Virus record (IMG/VR): IMGVR_UViG_2663762810_000005 | Span: 1-10,606 of that record | From: a virus | Lineage: Duplodnaviria; Heunggongvirae; Uroviricota; Caudoviricetes | Length of the DNA: 10,606 bases | Direction: 5' to 3' (one strand) | Part shown: positions 5,026-10,606 of the stretch, in pieces | How positions within the stretch are numbered: position 1 is the stretch's first letter | Layout of the letters: every line of letters starts with the position of its first letter | Notes under the pieces: model-generated | Database searches by the model: none | What the model saw: only the letters and a program-made list of their open reading frames with translations | What the model was told of the DNA's origin: nothing | Made by a program: the position numbers and the translations under genes

Positions 5026-5174
5026 TTCCTGCGATACCACGGAAGGTTGATAGCTGATTTCATCGCTTTATTTGCTTCAAGCCACATTTTTGAATCACCA
5101 ATAAATCGGGCTATTACTGCTTTGTTTTGTGCCGCACGAAGCATCTGGTGATTAATGGCTATTTCATTGCGCAT
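5022..5174 (-). CDS. kil: Kil-like protein (host cell-division inhibitor)
   Basis: 50 aa, hand-translated: MRNEIAINHQMLRAAQNKAVIARFIGDSKMWLEANKAMKSAINLPWYRRK. Core IARFIGDSKMW resembles the recalled lambda Kil IATFIGDEKMF; lies just after cIII as in lambda. GGAG SD. Confidence 0.5.
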   Translation of the reverse strand: MRNEIAINHQMLRAAQNKAVIARFIGDSKMWLEANKAMKSAINLPWYRRK

Positions 5175-5293
5175 AACGTCTCCAGTTGTTTCTTTGCTGC
5201 TCTGATTAATTGTTTAACTCGGCGTGATAATTCAGATTCGTGCGGGTAGAAAGCGGACATGACGCCGCTACCCGCGAGCTGAAAGTGCATCAT
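5159..5293 (-). CDS. cIII: cIII-like protein (FtsH/HflB inhibitor)
   Basis: 44 aa from the ATG at 5293 (AAGGAG 6 nt upstream), inside track ORF 5159..5398. MMHFQLAGSGVMSAFYPHESELSRRVKQLIRAAKKQLETL parallels the lambda cIII central helix (PSESLLERITRKLRDGWKRLIDIL). Confidence 0.55.
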   Translation of the reverse strand: MMHFQLAGSGVMSAFYPHESELSRRVKQLIRAAKKQLETLCAMK

Positions 5294-5357
5294 GGGTAAC
5301 TCCTTATATTTGATTGCATAACGAAAACGCCTCGAGTGAAGCGTTATTGGTATGCAT

Positions 5358-5383
5358 ATAAAAAAGCCCTCACACCGGAGGGC
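5358..5383 (-). terminator. Intrinsic terminator, minus strand (ends the AT-rich cassette)
   Basis: Perfect 6-bp stem gccctc/gagggc with a 6-nt loop, followed on the minus strand by TTTTTT (A-run 5360..5365 on +). Confidence 0.5.
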
Positions 5384-5487
5384 AAAGAAGATTTCCAATA
5401 ATCAGAACAAGTCGGCTCCTGTTTAGTTACGAGCGACATTGCTCCGTGTATTCACTCGTTGGAATGAATACACAGTGCTTATTCGTA

Positions 5488-5958
5488 CTAATAAAATACC
5501 CAATTTTCTGTTTCTTGGTTGTGTCCAAAGTTATATTCAATATCTGGTGTTGATGTATCAATATTTTTCATCCCATCAACAAGAGTTGATACAACAGCCA
5601 AATCTTGTTTTATTCTCATTAAATGGTATTTCTTCCGGCGCAATAAACTTTCAATAGCAAGTTTCTTCGTTGGGAATGCAAAAGATCTTTCTGCATTTTT
5701 TGCTACTTTCTTAATTGCATATCTATTTCTCCTTTGTTTCCATTCCTGTAACCACTGATTTGGTGCTGGTTTAAAATTAACAATCCAATGCGCAGGAACC
5801 AACCATGCATAATGCTCTGTCTGATGAAAAGCTATATATTGAAGTGCGAATATTTTTATCCCATCTTCTTCAACTGTCGCCTGGAATCTCCAGAAAACAG
5901 GCATTCCATCATGTTCAGTTTCTGATTCAGGAAAAGGTACGCTCCATGATTTTGTCAT
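5488..5958 (-). CDS. Hypothetical protein (156 aa) in a low-GC island; candidate moron, exclusion or defence function
   Basis: Long ORF in a clearly AT-rich segment; GAGGTGAG SD before the ATG; Trp/Lys-rich with no recognisable motif. Occupies the N-to-cIII interval where lambda carries ral/sieB-type genes. Confidence 0.55.
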   Translation of the reverse strand: MTKSWSVPFPESETEHDGMPVFWRFQATVEEDGIKIFALQYIAFHQTEHYAWLVPAHWIVNFKPAPNQWLQEWKQRRNRYAIKKVAKNAERSFAFPTKKLAIESLLRRKKYHLMRIKQDLAVVSTLVDGMKNIDTSTPDIEYNFGHNQETENWVFY

Positions 5959-6012
5959 ATCTCACCTCAAATAAGTGGTTTGCTGCGAAAGTAAATACGC
6001 TTAAGTTACCTG

Positions 6013-6150
6013 TTATTTATCCCACCAAGTTCCGTATCTATCTATCCAGTTACACCAATCATCGACACTCCATTTTGTTGTGTCGCATTTTGGCAATTGG
6101 CATGAATATCTACCTTCTTTGTAAAGTCGGCGTTTGACTTTCTTGAGCAT
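6013..6150 (-). CDS. Hypothetical small Cys/Trp-rich protein (45 aa)
   Basis: Hand-translated: MLKKVKRRLYKEGRYSCQLPKCDTTKWSVDDWCNWIDRYGTWWDK. GAGGTGG SD immediately after the N stop; AT-rich. Confidence 0.35.
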   Translation of the reverse strand: MLKKVKRRLYKEGRYSCQLPKCDTTKWSVDDWCNWIDRYGTWWDK

Positions 6151-6157
6151 GACCACC

Positions 6158-6490
6158 TCAATCGTAATAAGCCGGAATTGATTTTCCGCGTTGCTTCTGG
6201 CGGCCTGAACAAGTCACACCCATTTCACTGCGTGGCTTGCGGTACCATGTGCGCTGATTCTTGCGCTCAATACGTTGCAGGTTGCTTTCAATCTGTTCGT
6301 GGTATTCAGCCAGCACCGTAAGGTCTATCGGATTCAGTGCGCTTTCTACTCGTGATTTCGGTTTGCGATTCAGCGAGAGAATAGGGCGGTTAACTGGTTT
6401 AGCGCTTACCCCAACCAACAGGGGATTTGCTGCTTTCCATTGAGCCTGTTTCTCTGCGCGACGTTCGCGGCGGCGTGTTTGTGCATCCAT
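6158..6490 (-). CDS. N: Antitermination protein N (lambda-type)
   Basis: From the ATG at 6490 the product begins MDAQTRRRERRAEKQAQWKAANPLLVGVSAKPVNRPILSLNRKPKSRVESALNPIDLTVLAEY, matching the recalled lambda N arginine-rich N-terminus. The track ORF extends 30 codons further upstream to an alternative start. Confidence 0.9.
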   Translation of the reverse strand: MDAQTRRRERRAEKQAQWKAANPLLVGVSAKPVNRPILSLNRKPKSRVESALNPIDLTVLAEYHEQIESNLQRIERKNQRTWYRKPRSEMGVTCSGRQKQRGKSIPAYYD

Positions 6491-6600
6491 CTGGATTCTC
6501 CTGTCAGTTAGCTTTGAGTAACGCGCCGTGATGCTTATCTCCACGGTTGCTGTCTTGCAGCTGCATTTCGCGCTACTCAAAGCTTTCTGCTTTGAATGCT

Positions 6601-6631
6601 GCCCTTCTTCAGGGCTTAATTTTTAAGAGCG
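6601..6631 (-). promoter_or_regulatory. nutL site (boxA plus boxB)
   Basis: Minus strand reads CGCTCTTAA-AAATTAA-GCCCTGAAGAAGGGC: boxA at 6623..6631, boxB hairpin at 6601..6615. Matches recalled lambda nutL and sits between pL and N. Confidence 0.85.
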
Positions 6632-6671
6632 TCACCTTCATGGTGGTTAGTGCGTCCTGCTGATGGCCTAA

Positions 6672-6700
6672 AATATACCTGCAGGTAAAACAGCTGTCTA
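6672..6700 (-). promoter_or_regulatory. pL promoter (leftward)
   Basis: Minus strand -35 TAGACA (6695..6700), 17-bp spacer, -10 TATATT (6672..6677). Operator palindromes overlap the spacer and -35 flank. Confidence 0.5.
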
Positions 6701-6809: not shown

Positions 6810-7106
6810 TCAGAAGCTATTTGGATTGCTTGGCCATTGCGGCAATTTTGATTCTACTGGGGTGTGTTTGGGTTTGAGTCCGTTTAAGTAGTCAAGGCGC
6901 TCAATGGCGCATTTATACATAGCAATCTGCTCTGATGACATGTCGTCGTATGACATGCCTTTGAACTTTTTAATTATCGATTCTGCCTCATGTATAAGAT
7001 GCTTCTTCCTCATGAGTTCAGCTGTATGCTTAGAGCTTACAGGAGATAACTTTGCCCATATGAAGCAGATGATTACAACAGCGACTACTATGCCGGGTAT
7101 AAACAT
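6810..7106 (-). CDS. Hypothetical small membrane protein immediately downstream of cI (98 aa from ATG 7106; track start is a TTG at 7124)
   Basis: N-terminal TM helix (IPGIVVAVVIICFIWAKL) then about 70 aa of soluble, charged sequence. Lies between the cI stop (7121) and the terminator at 6775..6797, so it would be co-transcribed with cI. Moderately AT-rich. Confidence 0.5.
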   Translation of the reverse strand: MFIPGIVVAVVIICFIWAKLSPVSSKHTAELMRKKHLIHEAESIIKKFKGMSYDDMSSEQIAMYKCAIERLDYLNGLKPKHTPVESKLPQWPSNPNSF

Positions 7107-7120
7107 TTGCTGCTTTATCC

Positions 7121-7807
7121 TCAAACTTTTGGCAGATCGTCCTGGTCTACGTACCTGGTGTGTTTCACAATAGCTGAAACAAAATGCATTTTATCAACTT
7201 CTTCAACAGGAAGAGTGATTGGGCGGTGATCACTGTTTATGCTACTAAACTGATAATCACCGTCTCTTGTTTTGTTCATGATCTTTATCATGTTGTGACC
7301 GTCTTTGGTCCTTACAAAGACTTCATCACCTGGATGTACTGGCGTATTTGGTTCAATAACAACATATTCTCCTGACTGAATCCTTGGCCACATGCTGTCA
7401 CCCTTAACCTTCAGACCGTAAGCATCTTTATCGCCGCTGTAGATGCTTAACCAACCGGATCTGAATTCAATCATATCCACTGAGCCATCAACTCCCAAAA
7501 CGGCTTCACCAATTACCGGAACAAAACCCGCACGAACGTTACCCGCAAACTCAAGATGGTCCGTAGCTCCAGCTTTACCATCTGCAAGCATGTCCATCCA
7601 TCCGCGTGGGAGATTAAAAGATTTTTCAATTAGCTCCATCATATCGTCAGCAATGCGTTTTTTTCCGCTTTTTCCTTCCGGATACAGCATTCTGGAAACG
7701 TATGATGGTTCCCTTTCTATTCGACGAGCCAACTCTGAGGCCTTTCCATTACAGAATCGGTCTCTTATCTCTATCAGCCTTAGTCGTCTTTGTTCGTATT
7801 TATCCAT
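7121..7807 (-). CDS. cI: CI-type prophage repressor (N-terminal HTH plus C-terminal S24 LexA-like autopeptidase domain)
   Basis: 228 aa; HTH-like ASELARRIEREPSYVSRML; C-terminal GDSMWP with a downstream Lys, typical of S24 self-cleaving repressors. Flanked by operator palindromes on both sides. Confidence 0.85.
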   Translation of the reverse strand: MDKYEQRRLRLIEIRDRFCNGKASELARRIEREPSYVSRMLYPEGKSGKKRIADDMMELIEKSFNLPRGWMDMLADGKAGATDHLEFAGNVRAGFVPVIGEAVLGVDGSVDMIEFRSGWLSIYSGDKDAYGLKVKGDSMWPRIQSGEYVVIEPNTPVHPGDEVFVRTKDGHNMIKIMNKTRDGDYQFSSINSDHRPITLPVEEVDKMHFVSAIVKHTRYVDQDDLPKV

Positions 7808-8740: not shown

Positions 8741-9617
8741 GTTAGCTGATTACAGGCATAACCCTGTACAACATCAGGAGGCATCCAGTATGGGGTATGT
8801 CTCTATACACCGCCAGTTTATGGACAGCAGGCTCTATAAGGACTCTCAGGCAGTACATCTTTGGCTTCACTTAATCCTCAAGGCTAATCACGAATCTACT
8901 GTCGTCAATACGGATATCGGTCCGATAACTGTTGATCGCGGTCAGATGATAACTGGACGCCCGTCGCTGGTCAGAGAAACATTCATCCCAGACAACAAAG
9001 TTCGGAGCTTATTACGGACTTTTGAGTCGAAAGGTATGCTTAATATTTGCTCGATGGGGAAGAAATTTAGCCTGTTTACAATCGTTAAATATGACGATTT
9101 TCAGGCAAAAAATTGTCCAACGGTTGTCCAACGGTTGTCCAACGCAAACACCAGTAATGGCGCGGCTCTCAGCGGAGATTGTCCAACGGTTGTCCAACGG
9201 TTGTCCATAAACAATAATATAAATAATATCTCTAATACTGACGTATTAGAGAGTGCCACAGCAGACAAAAAGTCTGACAAGAAAAAACCTTCCGTTAGCT
9301 GTCAGGATGTTGTCGATGCTTACCACGAAATCCTTCCTGAAGCGCCAAGAATCCGCGCACTGAATGACAAGCGTAAAAACCAGATCCGAACGTTCTGGCG
9401 CAAAGCCGGAGTGATAACCCGACAGCTTGACGGGCATGGTTTCACGATGCAGGACTGGAGAAATTATTTGAGCTACGTAGGCGAAAATTGCCGATGGATG
9501 TTCGAAGAGCGCCCAAACCATCAGCGCGGAACCGTCTGGCACAAAAAGGGATTTGATTTCCTGCTTAACGATAATACCTACCTGAAAGTTCGTGAGGGTG
9601 AACACGATGACCGATAA
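8727..9617 (+). CDS. Replication initiator (lambda O / P22 gene 18 analogue) with the origin inside its coding sequence
   Basis: 296 aa; AGGAG SD; position after cII; contains two arrays of 11-bp iterons encoding repeated CPTVVQRLS, then an AT-rich segment, as in lambda ori within O. Confidence 0.7.
   Translation: MGVVKLADYRHNPVQHQEASSMGYVSIHRQFMDSRLYKDSQAVHLWLHLILKANHESTVVNTDIGPITVDRGQMITGRPSLVRETFIPDNKVRSLLRTFESKGMLNICSMGKKFSLFTIVKYDDFQAKNCPTVVQRLSNANTSNGAALSGDCPTVVQRLSINNNINNISNTDVLESATADKKSDKKKPSVSCQDVVDAYHEILPEAPRIRALNDKRKNQIRTFWRKAGVITRQLDGHGFTMQDWRNYLSYVGENCRWMFEERPNHQRGTVWHKKGFDFLLNDNTYLKVREGEHDDR
9113..9209 (+). repeat. Origin iterons: 2 x 3 tandem copies of TTGTCCAACGG (9113..9144 and 9179..9209), separated by 34 bp
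   Basis: Direct tandem 11-bp repeats read in the sequence; followed by an AT-rich stretch and a 10-bp inverted repeat tctctaatac/gtattagaga (9229..9252). Confidence 0.8.
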
Positions 9618-10170
9618 TTTTTATGCGCCGCCCCATAGCATCGAGGCAGAGCAGGCGGTGATTGGTGGATTGCTTCTGGATGATGACAGCAGTGAGCGCG
9701 TCCAGAAGGTTCTGGCGATGCTGAAGCCTGACTCATTTTACAGCCGACCACACAAAATCCTTTTCGAAGAAATAACCAGAATGCACCGGGAGCAAAAGCC
9801 AGTAGATGGCCTGACGCTTTTCGATGAACTGGAGCGTAAATCGTTAACGGCGTCTGTTGGCGGTTTTGCTTATATCGCTGAGATCGCAAAGAACACGCCA
9901 AGCGCAGCAAACATCGTTGCCTATGCAATGCAGGTTCGTGAAACCGCAATGGAACGCTACGCCATCAACCGCATGACTGAAGCGACGGAATTGCTCTATT
10001 CCCGCAACGGAATGACTGCAACGCAGAAGTACGAAGCTATTCAGGCGATTTTCACGCAACTGACAGACCATGCAAAAACCGGATCGCGTCGCGGCCTTCG
10101 CTCATTTGGTGAGGTCATGGAAGACTGGGTTACCAGTCTTCATCGCTGTCACGGTTCAGGGTGTAGTTAA
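9607..10170 (+). pseudogene. DnaB-family replicative helicase gene (P22 gene 12-like), truncated: N-terminal domain only
   Basis: From ATG 9607 (GAGGGTG SD, overlapping the initiator stop): PPHSIEAEQAVIGGLLLD...SVGGFAYIAEIAKNTPSAANIVAYAMQVRE closely matches the recalled E. coli DnaB N-terminal domain. ORF stops after about 188 aa with no Walker-type ATPase domain; homology is lost near 10127. Confidence 0.7.
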
Positions 10171-10606
10171 AGGCGCCGGCCTGAAGCGGGCGACTCAGGG
10201 CAAATGCACCTTCTTCTGTGGTGGCACCATTCTGTGCATCCACAACCCGGATACCCTGTCCGGAGGTTGCCACCCCGAGGTTACTGTTTCCGACATTTGT
10301 AAACGCAAGCCAGGTTTTGCCGGTTGCCTGACCACCATTAATCACCAGCTGGTCAGAGGCATTACTGCCATCAAGGCTAACACGCATATTGATGGTGCCA
10401 CCCTGACCGGTGAGGTTACTGGTTGTCAGTTTATGGAACGTTACCGGGGCGTTGCCTTTTACAACAGCACGGCTCAGTACGGCATCCGGTGTTGTCTGAT
10501 TGTCAAAGTAAATCTCCCCTGCGTTAACAATATCGCCGGTACTGACCACATCACCATTCAGTACCATGCTGGCGCCTTTACTGAGCTGTGTTCTGCCACT
10601 CAGACT
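10130..10606 (-). pseudogene. Autotransporter-type (AIDA-I/Ag43-like) passenger-domain fragment, 3'-truncated; open to the window edge
   Basis: Minus-strand frame is open from 10606 to a stop at 10130; Gly/Thr/Asn-rich beta-helix-like repeats (LVINGGQATGKTWLAFTNVGNS, GIRVVDAQNGATTEEGAFALSRPLQAGAFNYTL) recalled from autotransporter passenger/autochaperone regions; no beta-barrel domain follows. Confidence 0.5.

Follow-up and report, generated by a model that had tools for sequence, protein, structure and literature searches.

Gene order, base composition and transcription signals

The window analysed here is a stretch of 10,606 nt from a Caudoviricetes virus, and the segment under study (5358-6150) lies in it between the early genes N and cIII, all features described below being on the minus strand. 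The upstream flank encodes a lambda-type antiterminator N (6158..6490; 110 aa, starting MDAQTRRRERR; Pfam N36, E 2.5e-26; also phrog_271). The ATG of a small ORF of 45 aa (6013-6150) follows 7 nt past the N stop codon, and an in-frame GTG at 6156 would extend it to 47 aa. Next comes a large ORF of 156 aa (5488-5958); large and small ORFs alike are preceded by a strong GAGGTG Shine-Dalgarno sequence 4-5 nt 5' of the ATG. An intrinsic terminator (5358..5383) closes the segment, and downstream of the terminators lies cIII (5159..5293; 44 aa, HK97/HK022 type; Pfam cIII, E 7.9e-30, and HK97 annotation). Both ORFs and the terminator exist where a preliminary description of this DNA had placed them, and its choice of N and cIII as flanks stands. 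Across 5300-5986 the nucleotide identity to HK97 is 99.0%. Low GC had also been claimed for the segment, and the computed dip bears this out: GC is 35.2% in the 156-aa ORF, 39.1% in the small ORF and 37.5% over 5358-6150, against 45.1% in the window, 51.3% in N and 44.1% in cIII-kil, with the 156-aa ORF among the lowest 1.1% of all 471-bp stretches. A second island, just as AT-rich, occurs at about 650-1250. Neither tRNAs, tandem repeats or flanking direct repeats nor, in an Rfam scan, any RNA family were found in the region, and ORFs on its opposite strand gave no family matches.

The best promoter-like site between 4900 and 7000 is a candidate pL (6672..6700; TAGACA-17-TATATT, 10/12 matches) set amid repeated operator-like motifs, TACCTNNAGGTA. 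It is followed by a putative nutL (6601..6631), located by sequence and a hairpin scan, with boxA CGCTCTTAA at 6631-6623 and a boxB hairpin GCCCTGAAGAAGGGC at 6615-6601, a pair which we take to match nutL of lambda. From 5958 to 6660 no sigma-70-like site with at least 9/12 matches was found on the minus strand, and upstream of the two genes only pL qualifies; the scan covered the sigma-70 consensus only, and weak, non-consensus, activator-dependent or internal promoters would escape it, lambda sieB being a precedent for such a promoter within the N-cIII interval. The terminator at 5358..5383 is the first detectable one downstream of pL, with no other minus-strand site in 6672-5383; Rho-dependent termination between N and the two genes, for which lambda tL1 is a precedent, is invisible to the tools used. 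Lying between pL, nutL and N on one side and this first terminator on the other, both genes are probably co-transcribed with N from pL.

The terminator, identified in a consensus scan, is of the tL2a type (stem GCCCTC/GAGGGC at 5383-5366, 6-nt loop CGGTGT, T6). Its stem is the last element of a conserved lambdoid linker (5366..5478), preceded there by a 12-bp hairpin (5441-5478) and a second, imperfect hairpin; the RNA fold of 5320-5480 reaches -56.2 kcal/mol (z = -5.1). A 115-bp linker block that includes the terminator is nearly identical in lambda, Sf6, mEpX1 and HK97, whichever gene precedes it, and the linker is annotated in Sf6 ('tL2A', 'bsq4 boundary sequence'), mEpX1 and HK97 ('putative terminator'), the Sf6 record adding for the terminator 'homology to phage lambda; tL2A'. 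Being common to these four phages, the block is backbone and not part of the gene pair, and the idea that the pair brings its own terminator fails on this point. A second terminator-like hairpin, AACGCTTCACTCGAGGCGTT followed by TTCGTT (5319..5345), matches the lambda ea10-cIII intergenic region and is conserved 5' of cIII.

Two separate modules in a mosaic slot

The pair had been described as a two-gene cassette, and the genes mostly occur apart. Among 5426 complete E. coli genomes the 156-aa gene, a homologue of HK97 gp45, is present in 598 (~11%) and the small gene, a member of the DUF5484 family, in 145, the two being contiguous in only 44. DUF5484 adjoins an identical 156-aa gene in only 2-3 of 80 IMG/VR loci, and Sf6, SfI and mEpX1 carry the small ORF without gp45. 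Aligned with hhalign, the 156-aa and 45-aa proteins show no profile similarity. An obligate two-gene system was rejected, as adjacency is not kept, and with contiguity in 44 genomes only the notion of a small zinc-binding protein partnering an effector loses its footing as well. Judged by these sequence distributions, each gene is a module independent of the other.

The slot in which they sit is mosaic. The 80 IMG/VR loci with an identical 156-aa gene display at least 20 different flank arrangements, their cargo comprising Ea10, a P22 gene-17 homologue, Sf6 gp33-like and gp34-like genes, DUF5484 and two N types; Ral, DUF2528 and Nun appear in further records, and the lambda N-cIII interval itself contains ral, sieB, ea10 and orf28. 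The preliminary description was right to place ral and sieB in the lambda interval, and right to see an accessory slot here, the cargo of which does vary. The gp45 module is inserted between ...AATAAACAC and GCACTGTG..., the linker following other genes in lambda, Sf6 and mEpX1. In an alignment of six loci with differing upstream neighbours, the sole upstream DNA moving with the module is GCAGCAAACCACTTATTTGAGGTGAGAT (5959..5987), with the RBS inside; module-specific DNA 5' of the gp45 ATG measures 16-29 bp in these loci and, as it also holds the RBS, leaves no room for a promoter. Similarly to the gene in the window, gp45 homologues of other Enterobacterales and of Bas81-type phages have a GC content 3-8 points under that of their own flanks.

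These data bear on the proposal that the segment is a moron-type cassette expressed in the repressed prophage, where it would provide superinfection exclusion or abortive infection through a 156-aa effector and its small zinc-binding partner. In the sense of Hendrix and Juhala, a moron is an autonomous promoter-gene-terminator unit between genes adjacent in relatives. Insertion between sequences adjacent in relatives and a deviant base composition were both found, and an AT-rich segment with a sporadic, mobile distribution, a terminator downstream and a slot that houses sieB in lambda would suit such a cassette. What fails is autonomy: no promoter-like site appears in the consensus scan, within the limits given above, and the module-specific upstream DNA is too short to hold one; the terminator is shared backbone; and the two genes mostly travel apart. 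Together with the protein features and homologue distribution presented below, this makes a prophage-expressed exclusion cassette quite unlikely.

Families of the two proteins

The 45-aa sequence is identical to 'gene 36 protein [Shigella phage Sf6]', which the Sf6 record calls 'similar to phage T4 gene Orf55.4'. In agreement, it matches Pfam DUF5484, the T4 55.4 family (46.5 bits against a gathering threshold of 27, E 2.9e-12; profile positions 3-41 of 43), and phrog_1871 (E 1.7e-22). Roughly 1000 phage records, T-even phages among them, contain homologues 40-55% identical, those of T-even phages lying within the small-ORF cluster between gene 55 and nrdG; relatives in T-even phages also tell against a function confined to repressed prophages. 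The protein is basic and soluble. Its earlier characterization as Cys/Trp-rich holds for Trp (5 W, three invariant in the family) and not for a Cys-rich, zinc-binding protein: there are 3 Cys and no His, no Cys is conserved among DUF5484 homologues, and the T-even ones lack all three. The invariant residues of the family are K, R, K, G, Y, P, T, W, W, I, D, G and W. A zinc ribbon or other small zinc-binding protein was rejected, since the four conserved Cys/His ligands are missing. An AlphaFold2 (AF2) model of the protein alone has a pLDDT of 61.9 and serves for coarse secondary structure only, and the literature on DUF5484 and T4 55.4 yielded no function.

HK97 gp45 (NP_037731), 933W L0079 and Phi24B vb_24B_11c share 99-100% identity with the 156-aa protein, which also matches phrog_1636 over its full length (E 2.7e-112, residues 1-156/156). 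With this match and that of the small protein to DUF5484, the statement that neither belongs to a known family no longer holds; the literature on HK97 gp45, 933W L0079, vb_24B_11c, NP_037731 and phrog_1636 reports no function, and the supplements of an accessory-gene screen (PMC12373910) contain neither the 156-aa nor the 45-aa protein. The gene is conserved at 100% in the majority of Stx1 and Stx2 phages. It is a real coding gene under purifying selection, pN being 0.18-0.30 and pS, which is saturated, 0.69-1.0. Word-indexed homologue searches reached Enterobacterales relatives only; a full HMMER scan delineated a gp45 superfamily of 87 representatives (clusters at 50% identity), confined to phages and without a characterised member. 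All 69 members tested match phrog_1636, and 59 of them also phrog_13631. Only G33, E/Q46, T47, K87 and A101 are near-invariant across the 87 clusters, and hence there is no catalytic signature. No informative domain fusion occurs among the 87 representatives; one of them, a repetitive 940-aa protein, is probably spurious.

The protein is basic (pI 9.07). Its N-terminal part is acidic and rich in beta structure, its centre strongly basic (net +12 over residues 71-120) and leading into a long amphipathic helix, and it ends in a conserved acidic-aromatic tail, FGHNxETExWxF. Pfam gave no domain for it and NCBIfam no match for either protein, Pfam scans with the whole-family gp45 alignment were likewise empty, and the PDB, queried by sequence with single proteins and with profiles built from 20 and 69 sequences, returned nothing below E 0.1. 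No fold match was obtained for either protein, the AF2 model of the 156-aa protein (20-sequence alignment, pLDDT 60.4) being usable for coarse secondary structure only. An AP2/integrase-arm-like or bZIP-like reading of the segment RSFAFPTKKLAIESLLRRKKYHL is a resemblance alone, found by no tool, and is not claimed here.

Several of these results concern exclusion or defence directly. Neither the 156-aa nor the 45-aa protein has a transmembrane segment (maximum Kyte-Doolittle 19-residue hydropathy 0.56 and -0.74), unlike SieB-type exclusion proteins, and the only match in PADLOC-DB, to Cas1_II (E 0.018, 12.4 bits), is noise; a SieB-like exclusion function, as suggested earlier, thus finds no backing. 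Homology to SieB was rejected, with no Pfam or PHROG SieB match and an empty tblastn of lambda SieB over the 80 related loci, as was homology to Ral or Lar, neither protein having a family match. The unconserved Cys of the small protein removes the proposed zinc-binding partner.

Settings in other phages and possible roles

The position of gp45 homologues is informative. They lie directly 3' of N, with the small ORF absent, in HK97, 933W and Phi24B, 3 nt past N in two metagenomic lambdoids (66-71% identity), and about 750 nt past N, within the N-cIII interval, in a Cronobacter locus. Such a post-N position, which recurs beside two or more unrelated types of N, could suggest that the 156-aa protein acts together with N, for instance by stabilising it against Lon or by modulating antitermination. 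We regard this as highly improbable: Bas81-type, Pantoea, Klebsiella and Vibrio phages carry the homologue without any N gene, in Pectobacterium and Brenneria a gp45-like gene adjoins xis-int, far from N, and pairing with unrelated N types itself speaks against a specific partnership. What is kept across divergent homologues is a promoter-proximal, early placement. In Bas81-type siphoviruses the homologue, 62-63% identical, is the first gene of a divergent operon, and the Bas81 record has no integrase or repressor annotated. Thus, gp45 homologues occur in an apparently virulent phage also, and defence expressed from a prophage is hard to reconcile with so close a relative in phages without annotated lysogeny genes.

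The neighbours of these homologues suggest a different possibility, namely that the 156-aa protein has no connection with host defences and binds DNA or RNA in an accessory capacity, for instance to aid recombination, replication or partition or to act as a regulator early on. ParB-like and RusA genes adjoin the homologue in Bas81-type phages, RecE in a Vibrio phage and a DNA methyltransferase in Pantoea LIET2, with recT/yqaJ/ssb as further neighbours; the net charge of +12 over residues 71-120, followed by the long amphipathic helix, would also be in keeping with nucleic-acid binding. The xis-int neighbours in Pectobacterium and Brenneria and the ParB-like neighbour in Bas81 fit a role in DNA transactions equally well. 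However, no DNA-binding family matches in Pfam or PDB, even with the 69-sequence profile, the neighbours differ per lineage with no conserved functional partner, and the gene is missing from most lambdoid phages and is therefore dispensable for core DNA metabolism. Such a role seems to us rather unlikely.

Overall, we consider it probable that 5358-6150 is an ordinary mosaic of the lambdoid early-left (pL) operon and not an autonomous unit, and that it carries lytic-phase accessory genes, with counter-defence or host modulation as their likeliest role. Two unrelated single-gene modules would have been inserted in separate events between N and the tL2a linker preceding cIII, each amounting to little beyond an RBS and an ORF and having no promoter or terminator of its own. 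Both genes would be read from pL with N, earliest after infection or induction, and would be repressed by CI in the lysogen. Given that the proteins are small, soluble, basic and without conserved catalytic-type residues, we infer that both may act by binding a target instead of by catalysis. An accessory role in the lytic phase, most likely in counter-defence or host modulation, might resemble that of other occupants of the slot, namely Ral, the P22 gene-17 homologue and Abc2/Gam. The slot lends context to this reading, two neighbours having known counter-defence roles: the Ral gene adjoins gp45 in strain GF66.2, and a P22 gene-17 homologue adjoins the gp45 homologue in H-19B. On the other side, Pfam, NCBIfam, PADLOC and PDB assign no function by homology or fold. 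An anti-restriction role, already raised in the preliminary description, or a counter-defence role is possible. DefenseFinder anti-defence models applied to EHEC phages carrying the 156-aa gene recovered only a methyltransferase, Ral and Gam (PMC12502783); therefore the 156-aa protein, if involved in counter-defence, belongs to no known family.

A bolder version is conceivable, and we put it forward tentatively and with some doubt: the gp45 superfamily may represent a previously unrecognised class of immediate-early proteins for counter-defence or host takeover, made with N before antitermination and binding an immunity function of the host or of a resident prophage. More speculatively, binding might proceed through the C-terminal tail ETExWxF-COOH, which loosely recalls the C-terminal tip of SSB. 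If a counter-defence or host-takeover role is true, it would help account for the set of E. coli strains open to infection and conversion by Stx phages, and would matter for how Shiga-toxin phages spread and which hosts they use. The 156-aa gene is among the most widely and perfectly conserved genes annotated without function in these phages, and the most promoter-proximal after N. The DUF5484 protein, common to lambdoid and T-even phages, is a cheap candidate for similar tests.

The sequence feature itself changes little, as both genes, the terminator and the mosaicism of the slot were already known from the annotation of HK97, 933W, Sf6 and lambda. The closest parallels are HK97 gp45, 933W L0079 and Phi24B vb_24B_11c, which share the post-N position, the downstream linker, the terminator and cIII; unlike in the window, HK97 and the Stx phages have no 45-aa ORF between N and gp45, and most Stx phages have ea10/ssb inserted past the terminator. 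Sf6 gene 36 likewise starts 7-8 nt past the N stop codon, but what comes after it is ral, gene 34, tL2A and gene 33, with no gp45. In lambda the 115-bp block recurs, its terminator differing in one loop base (CGGTGT here, CAGTGT in lambda); there it follows ral, with ea10 before cIII, whereas in the window the gp45-like gene precedes it and the cIII leader comes directly after. SieB of lambda and P22 also lies in the N-cIII interval; it is a membrane protein transcribed from a promoter of its own, whereas the two ORFs here have neither a transmembrane segment nor a detected promoter. Lambda Ral, Rac Lar and P22 gene 17, the last of which allows escape from exclusion by a resident prophage, resemble the two genes in their slot, in encoding small soluble proteins, in their sporadic occurrence and in being driven by pL; the likeness is an analogy of how they may work, there being no sequence similarity to either protein. 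Ral, beside gp45 in GF66.2 and a separate gene also in Sf6, is not an alternative to gp45.

Organization of the early region

ORF calls, family scans and sequence reading identify the window as the immunity and early region of a lambdoid prophage. On the minus strand, a LexA-type cI repressor (7121-7807) and a 104-aa ORF (6810-7124) are followed by a pL-like promoter (6700-6672) with repeated operator-like motifs around it, nutL (6631-6601; boxA CGCTCTTAA, boxB GCCCTGAAGAAGGGC), N (6158-6490), a 45-aa ORF (6013-6150), a 156-aa ORF (5488-5958), a structured linker with an intrinsic terminator (stem 5383-5366, T-run to 5358), a second hairpin (5345-5326) and cIII (5159-5293), beyond which lie kil, a Rad52/Erf-type annealing protein and SSB. 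The coordinates of the preliminary description are all correct, and so is the GC dip that it claimed: the 156-aa ORF, at 35.2% GC, is well below both N (51.3%) and the window as a whole (45.1%), and among windows of its size it ranks in the lowest 1.1%. An equally AT-rich second island lies at about 650-1250. The phage SSB (3544-4059, minus strand) extends 14 residues beyond the canonical DDDIPF motif, normally the C-terminal tip of SSB; the extension could alter SSB-partner interactions or represent a frameshifted end. The right end of the prophage appears truncated or rearranged, since E. coli genome matches all stop at 10132 (10133-10606 lying outside them) and a DnaB-like replication gene (9592-10170) is cut short against an opposite-strand autotransporter fragment (ORF 10130-10567, minus strand; Pfam AC_1, E 3e-20, also Pertactin). 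In the collection, no complete E. coli genome reaches 80% coverage of the window.

Two independent genes in a mosaic slot

Both ORFs between N and cIII are real genes, each with a strong Shine-Dalgarno site. HK97 Gp45, 933W L0079, Phi24B vb_24B_11c and Min27 ORF20 share 99-100% identity with the 156-aa protein, as does the equivalent ORF in dozens of Stx1 and Stx2 phages; the 156-aa protein matches phrog_1636 end to end, and its exact sequence occurs on at least 1000 contigs. Among its homologues in Pectobacterium, Cronobacter, Brenneria, Rosenbergiella and Bas81, pN is 0.18-0.30 versus a pS of 0.69-1.0, with synonymous sites saturated. The 45-aa sequence is the deposited 'gene 36 protein' of Shigella phage Sf6, annotated there as 'similar to phage T4 gene Orf55.4'. 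Its score clears the Pfam DUF5484 threshold, and about 1000 records of T-even and other phages have homologues of 40-55% identity, located among the small ORFs of the gene 55-nrdG cluster. Thus, the two proteins, in which no motif of a known family had at first been recognised, fall into named families, albeit without assigned function (for phrog_1636, in PHROG itself).

The segment had also been read as a two-gene cassette, yet the genes mostly occur apart. Of 5426 complete E. coli genomes, 598 carry the 156-aa gene (maximally four copies each), 145 the small ORF and 44 the contiguous pair, counted where at least 80% of 5300-6200 was covered. HK97, 933W and Phi24B carry gp45 immediately after N, without the small ORF; Sf6, SfI and mEpX1 have the small ORF and lack gp45. 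DUF5484 adjoins gp45 in 2-3 of 80 IMG/VR loci with an identical gp45 gene, and profile-profile comparison detected no relation between the two proteins. The same 80 loci display at least 20 flank arrangements, bearing out the expectation of a slot with varying cargo. In a Cronobacter malonaticus prophage (L006, 3252-3518), another, unlike small ORF occupies the site just after N; it has a C2H2-like motif (CPLCGKKF...HINDYH) and again illustrates small-protein cargo next to N.

As a feature, the segment is already known: annotations of HK97, 933W, Sf6 and lambda cover both ORFs, the terminator and the mosaic slot, and published accounts describe lambdoid early operons as highly mosaic and as containing many genes without a known function (PMC2629481; bioRxiv 10.1101/2020.10.05.325894). 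Our literature search found no published function for either gene. The residual interest lies in a promoter-proximal, perfectly conserved Stx-phage gene from a phage-only superfamily without a characterised member.

A backbone terminator and probable transcription from pL

The terminator, initially taken as the cassette's own, belongs to the phage backbone, because the block that contains it is shared across phages whatever the gene upstream. A 115-bp stretch, from GCACTGTGTATTC... to GCCCTCC(A/G)GTGTGAGGGC-T-run, is nearly identical in four other phages (lambda, Sf6, mEpX1 and HK97); the lambda copy lies between ral and ea10, and that of Sf6, annotated as 'terminator, homology to phage lambda; tL2A', overlaps a 'bsq4 boundary sequence'. 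Both the hairpin that follows and the cIII leader correspond to the lambda ea10-cIII intergenic sequence, and a 198-bp query over the linker matched 325 phage records regardless of the upstream gene. The terminator doubles as one of the conserved linkers where lambdoid modules are exchanged. The predicted fold of the linker RNA (5320-5480, minus strand) comprises four hairpins (-56.2 kcal/mol; z = -5.1 versus shuffles). One hairpin upstream of the terminator (5441-5478), a perfect 12-bp stem conserved from lambda to Sf6, is a candidate processing site or recombination linker, a role beyond termination.

No promoter sequence travels with the module. Across six aligned loci with differing upstream neighbours, the DNA that moves with gp45 comprises 16-29 bp before the ATG, the RBS alone (TTATTTGAGGTGAGAT); in two metagenomic relatives (66-71% identity) this GAGGTGA RBS lies inside the 3' end of N. 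Between pL and the two genes, a consensus scan, blind to weak promoters, found no sigma-70-like site on the coding strand, and a relaxed scan added a single 8/12 match, within the small ORF. Nor did a scan blind to Rho-dependent termination, as exemplified by lambda tL1, detect a terminator-like hairpin between pL and 5383. From this arrangement, we infer that both genes are co-transcribed with N from pL, upstream of the first intrinsic terminator, and would be repressed in the lysogen. Of the readings considered, the prophage-defence moron of the preliminary description has the least support. For a lysogen-expressed exclusion gene, the 104-aa ORF (6810-7124, minus strand) is a better candidate than the segment 5358-6150: located immediately 3' of the cI-like repressor, in the rexAB position, it is probably on the pRM transcript. 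It encodes an N-terminal hydrophobic helix, matches phrog_10450 (function not assigned in PHROG) and no Pfam family, and ends at a strong terminator (6798-6782, minus strand).

Protein properties and proposed role

Both proteins are soluble and basic, without a transmembrane segment. The 156-aa protein (pI 9.07, no cysteine) has an acidic N-terminal part with predicted beta hairpins. Its centre (residues 71-120; net charge +12) leads into a long amphipathic helix (98-130), and its acidic-aromatic C-terminus is conserved (FGHNxETExWxF). HMMER, run over the full set of 1.84 billion representatives, retrieved 87 related clusters, nearly all stand-alone proteins of 130-155 aa matching positions ~20-140. 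All 69 superfamily members tested fall into PHROGs without assigned function and lack a Pfam domain, and the 69-sequence profile found no PDB relative. Given that only G33, E/Q46, T47, K87 and A101 are nearly invariant, the protein looks like a binding protein rather than an enzyme. The tail YNFGHNQETENWVFY (residues 142-156; 5488-5532, minus strand) is kept even at 25-30% identity (e.g. ...EDLNWNEY, ...YSWVEI); it loosely resembles the acidic-hydrophobic C-terminal tip of SSB and may be a docking motif. The 45-aa protein (pI 9.4) has five Trp and three Cys, with 13 residues invariant from lambdoid through T-even phages; the suggested zinc-binding role is unsupported, since homologues replace the three Cys by I/T, G and I. 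Structure predictions were poor (pLDDT 60 and 62 for the 156-aa and 45-aa proteins) and fold searches stayed at noise level.

In the lineages compared, the gp45-like gene always has the orientation of an early operon and is usually promoter-proximal. In E. coli it follows N immediately; in two divergent metagenomic lambdoids it lies 3 nt beyond N, and in Cronobacter ~750 nt beyond N, within the interval that ends at cIII. The Rosenbergiella copy precedes recT/yqaJ/ssb, those of Pectobacterium and Brenneria stand right in front of xis-int, and Bas81-type siphoviruses have the gene first in a divergent operon, ahead of a ParB-like gene. In Escherichia phage Bas81 (L104, 19698-20174) and three further loci (L105-L107), this homologue is 62-63% identical and precedes ParB-like (HTH_ParB) and RusA genes. 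The neighbours in these other lineages suggest that the basic 156-aa protein acts in DNA transactions or regulation, the main rival to the counter-defence role proposed below. Neither an integrase nor a repressor is annotated in the Bas81 record, and the relatives of this phage are Salmonella siphoviruses; more distant homologues (25-30% identity) come from phages of Pantoea, Klebsiella and Vibrio. Homologues in phages without lysogeny genes, together with DUF5484 in T-evens, argue that both proteins serve the infecting phage, not the lysogen.

Overall, we propose two independent pL-driven accessory proteins that would be made at the very start of lytic development and would act by binding a host, prophage or nucleic-acid target, with counter-defence or host modulation as their most plausible role. 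In EHEC phages with the 156-aa gene, a published run of the DefenseFinder anti-defence models reported only methyltransferase, Ral and Gam (PMC12502783), which counts against a known counter-defence family for its product. Counter-defence or host modulation would fit the characterised occupants of this region: Ral and, in H-19B, a P22 gene-17 homologue within the slot itself, and Abc2/Gam further along the operon.
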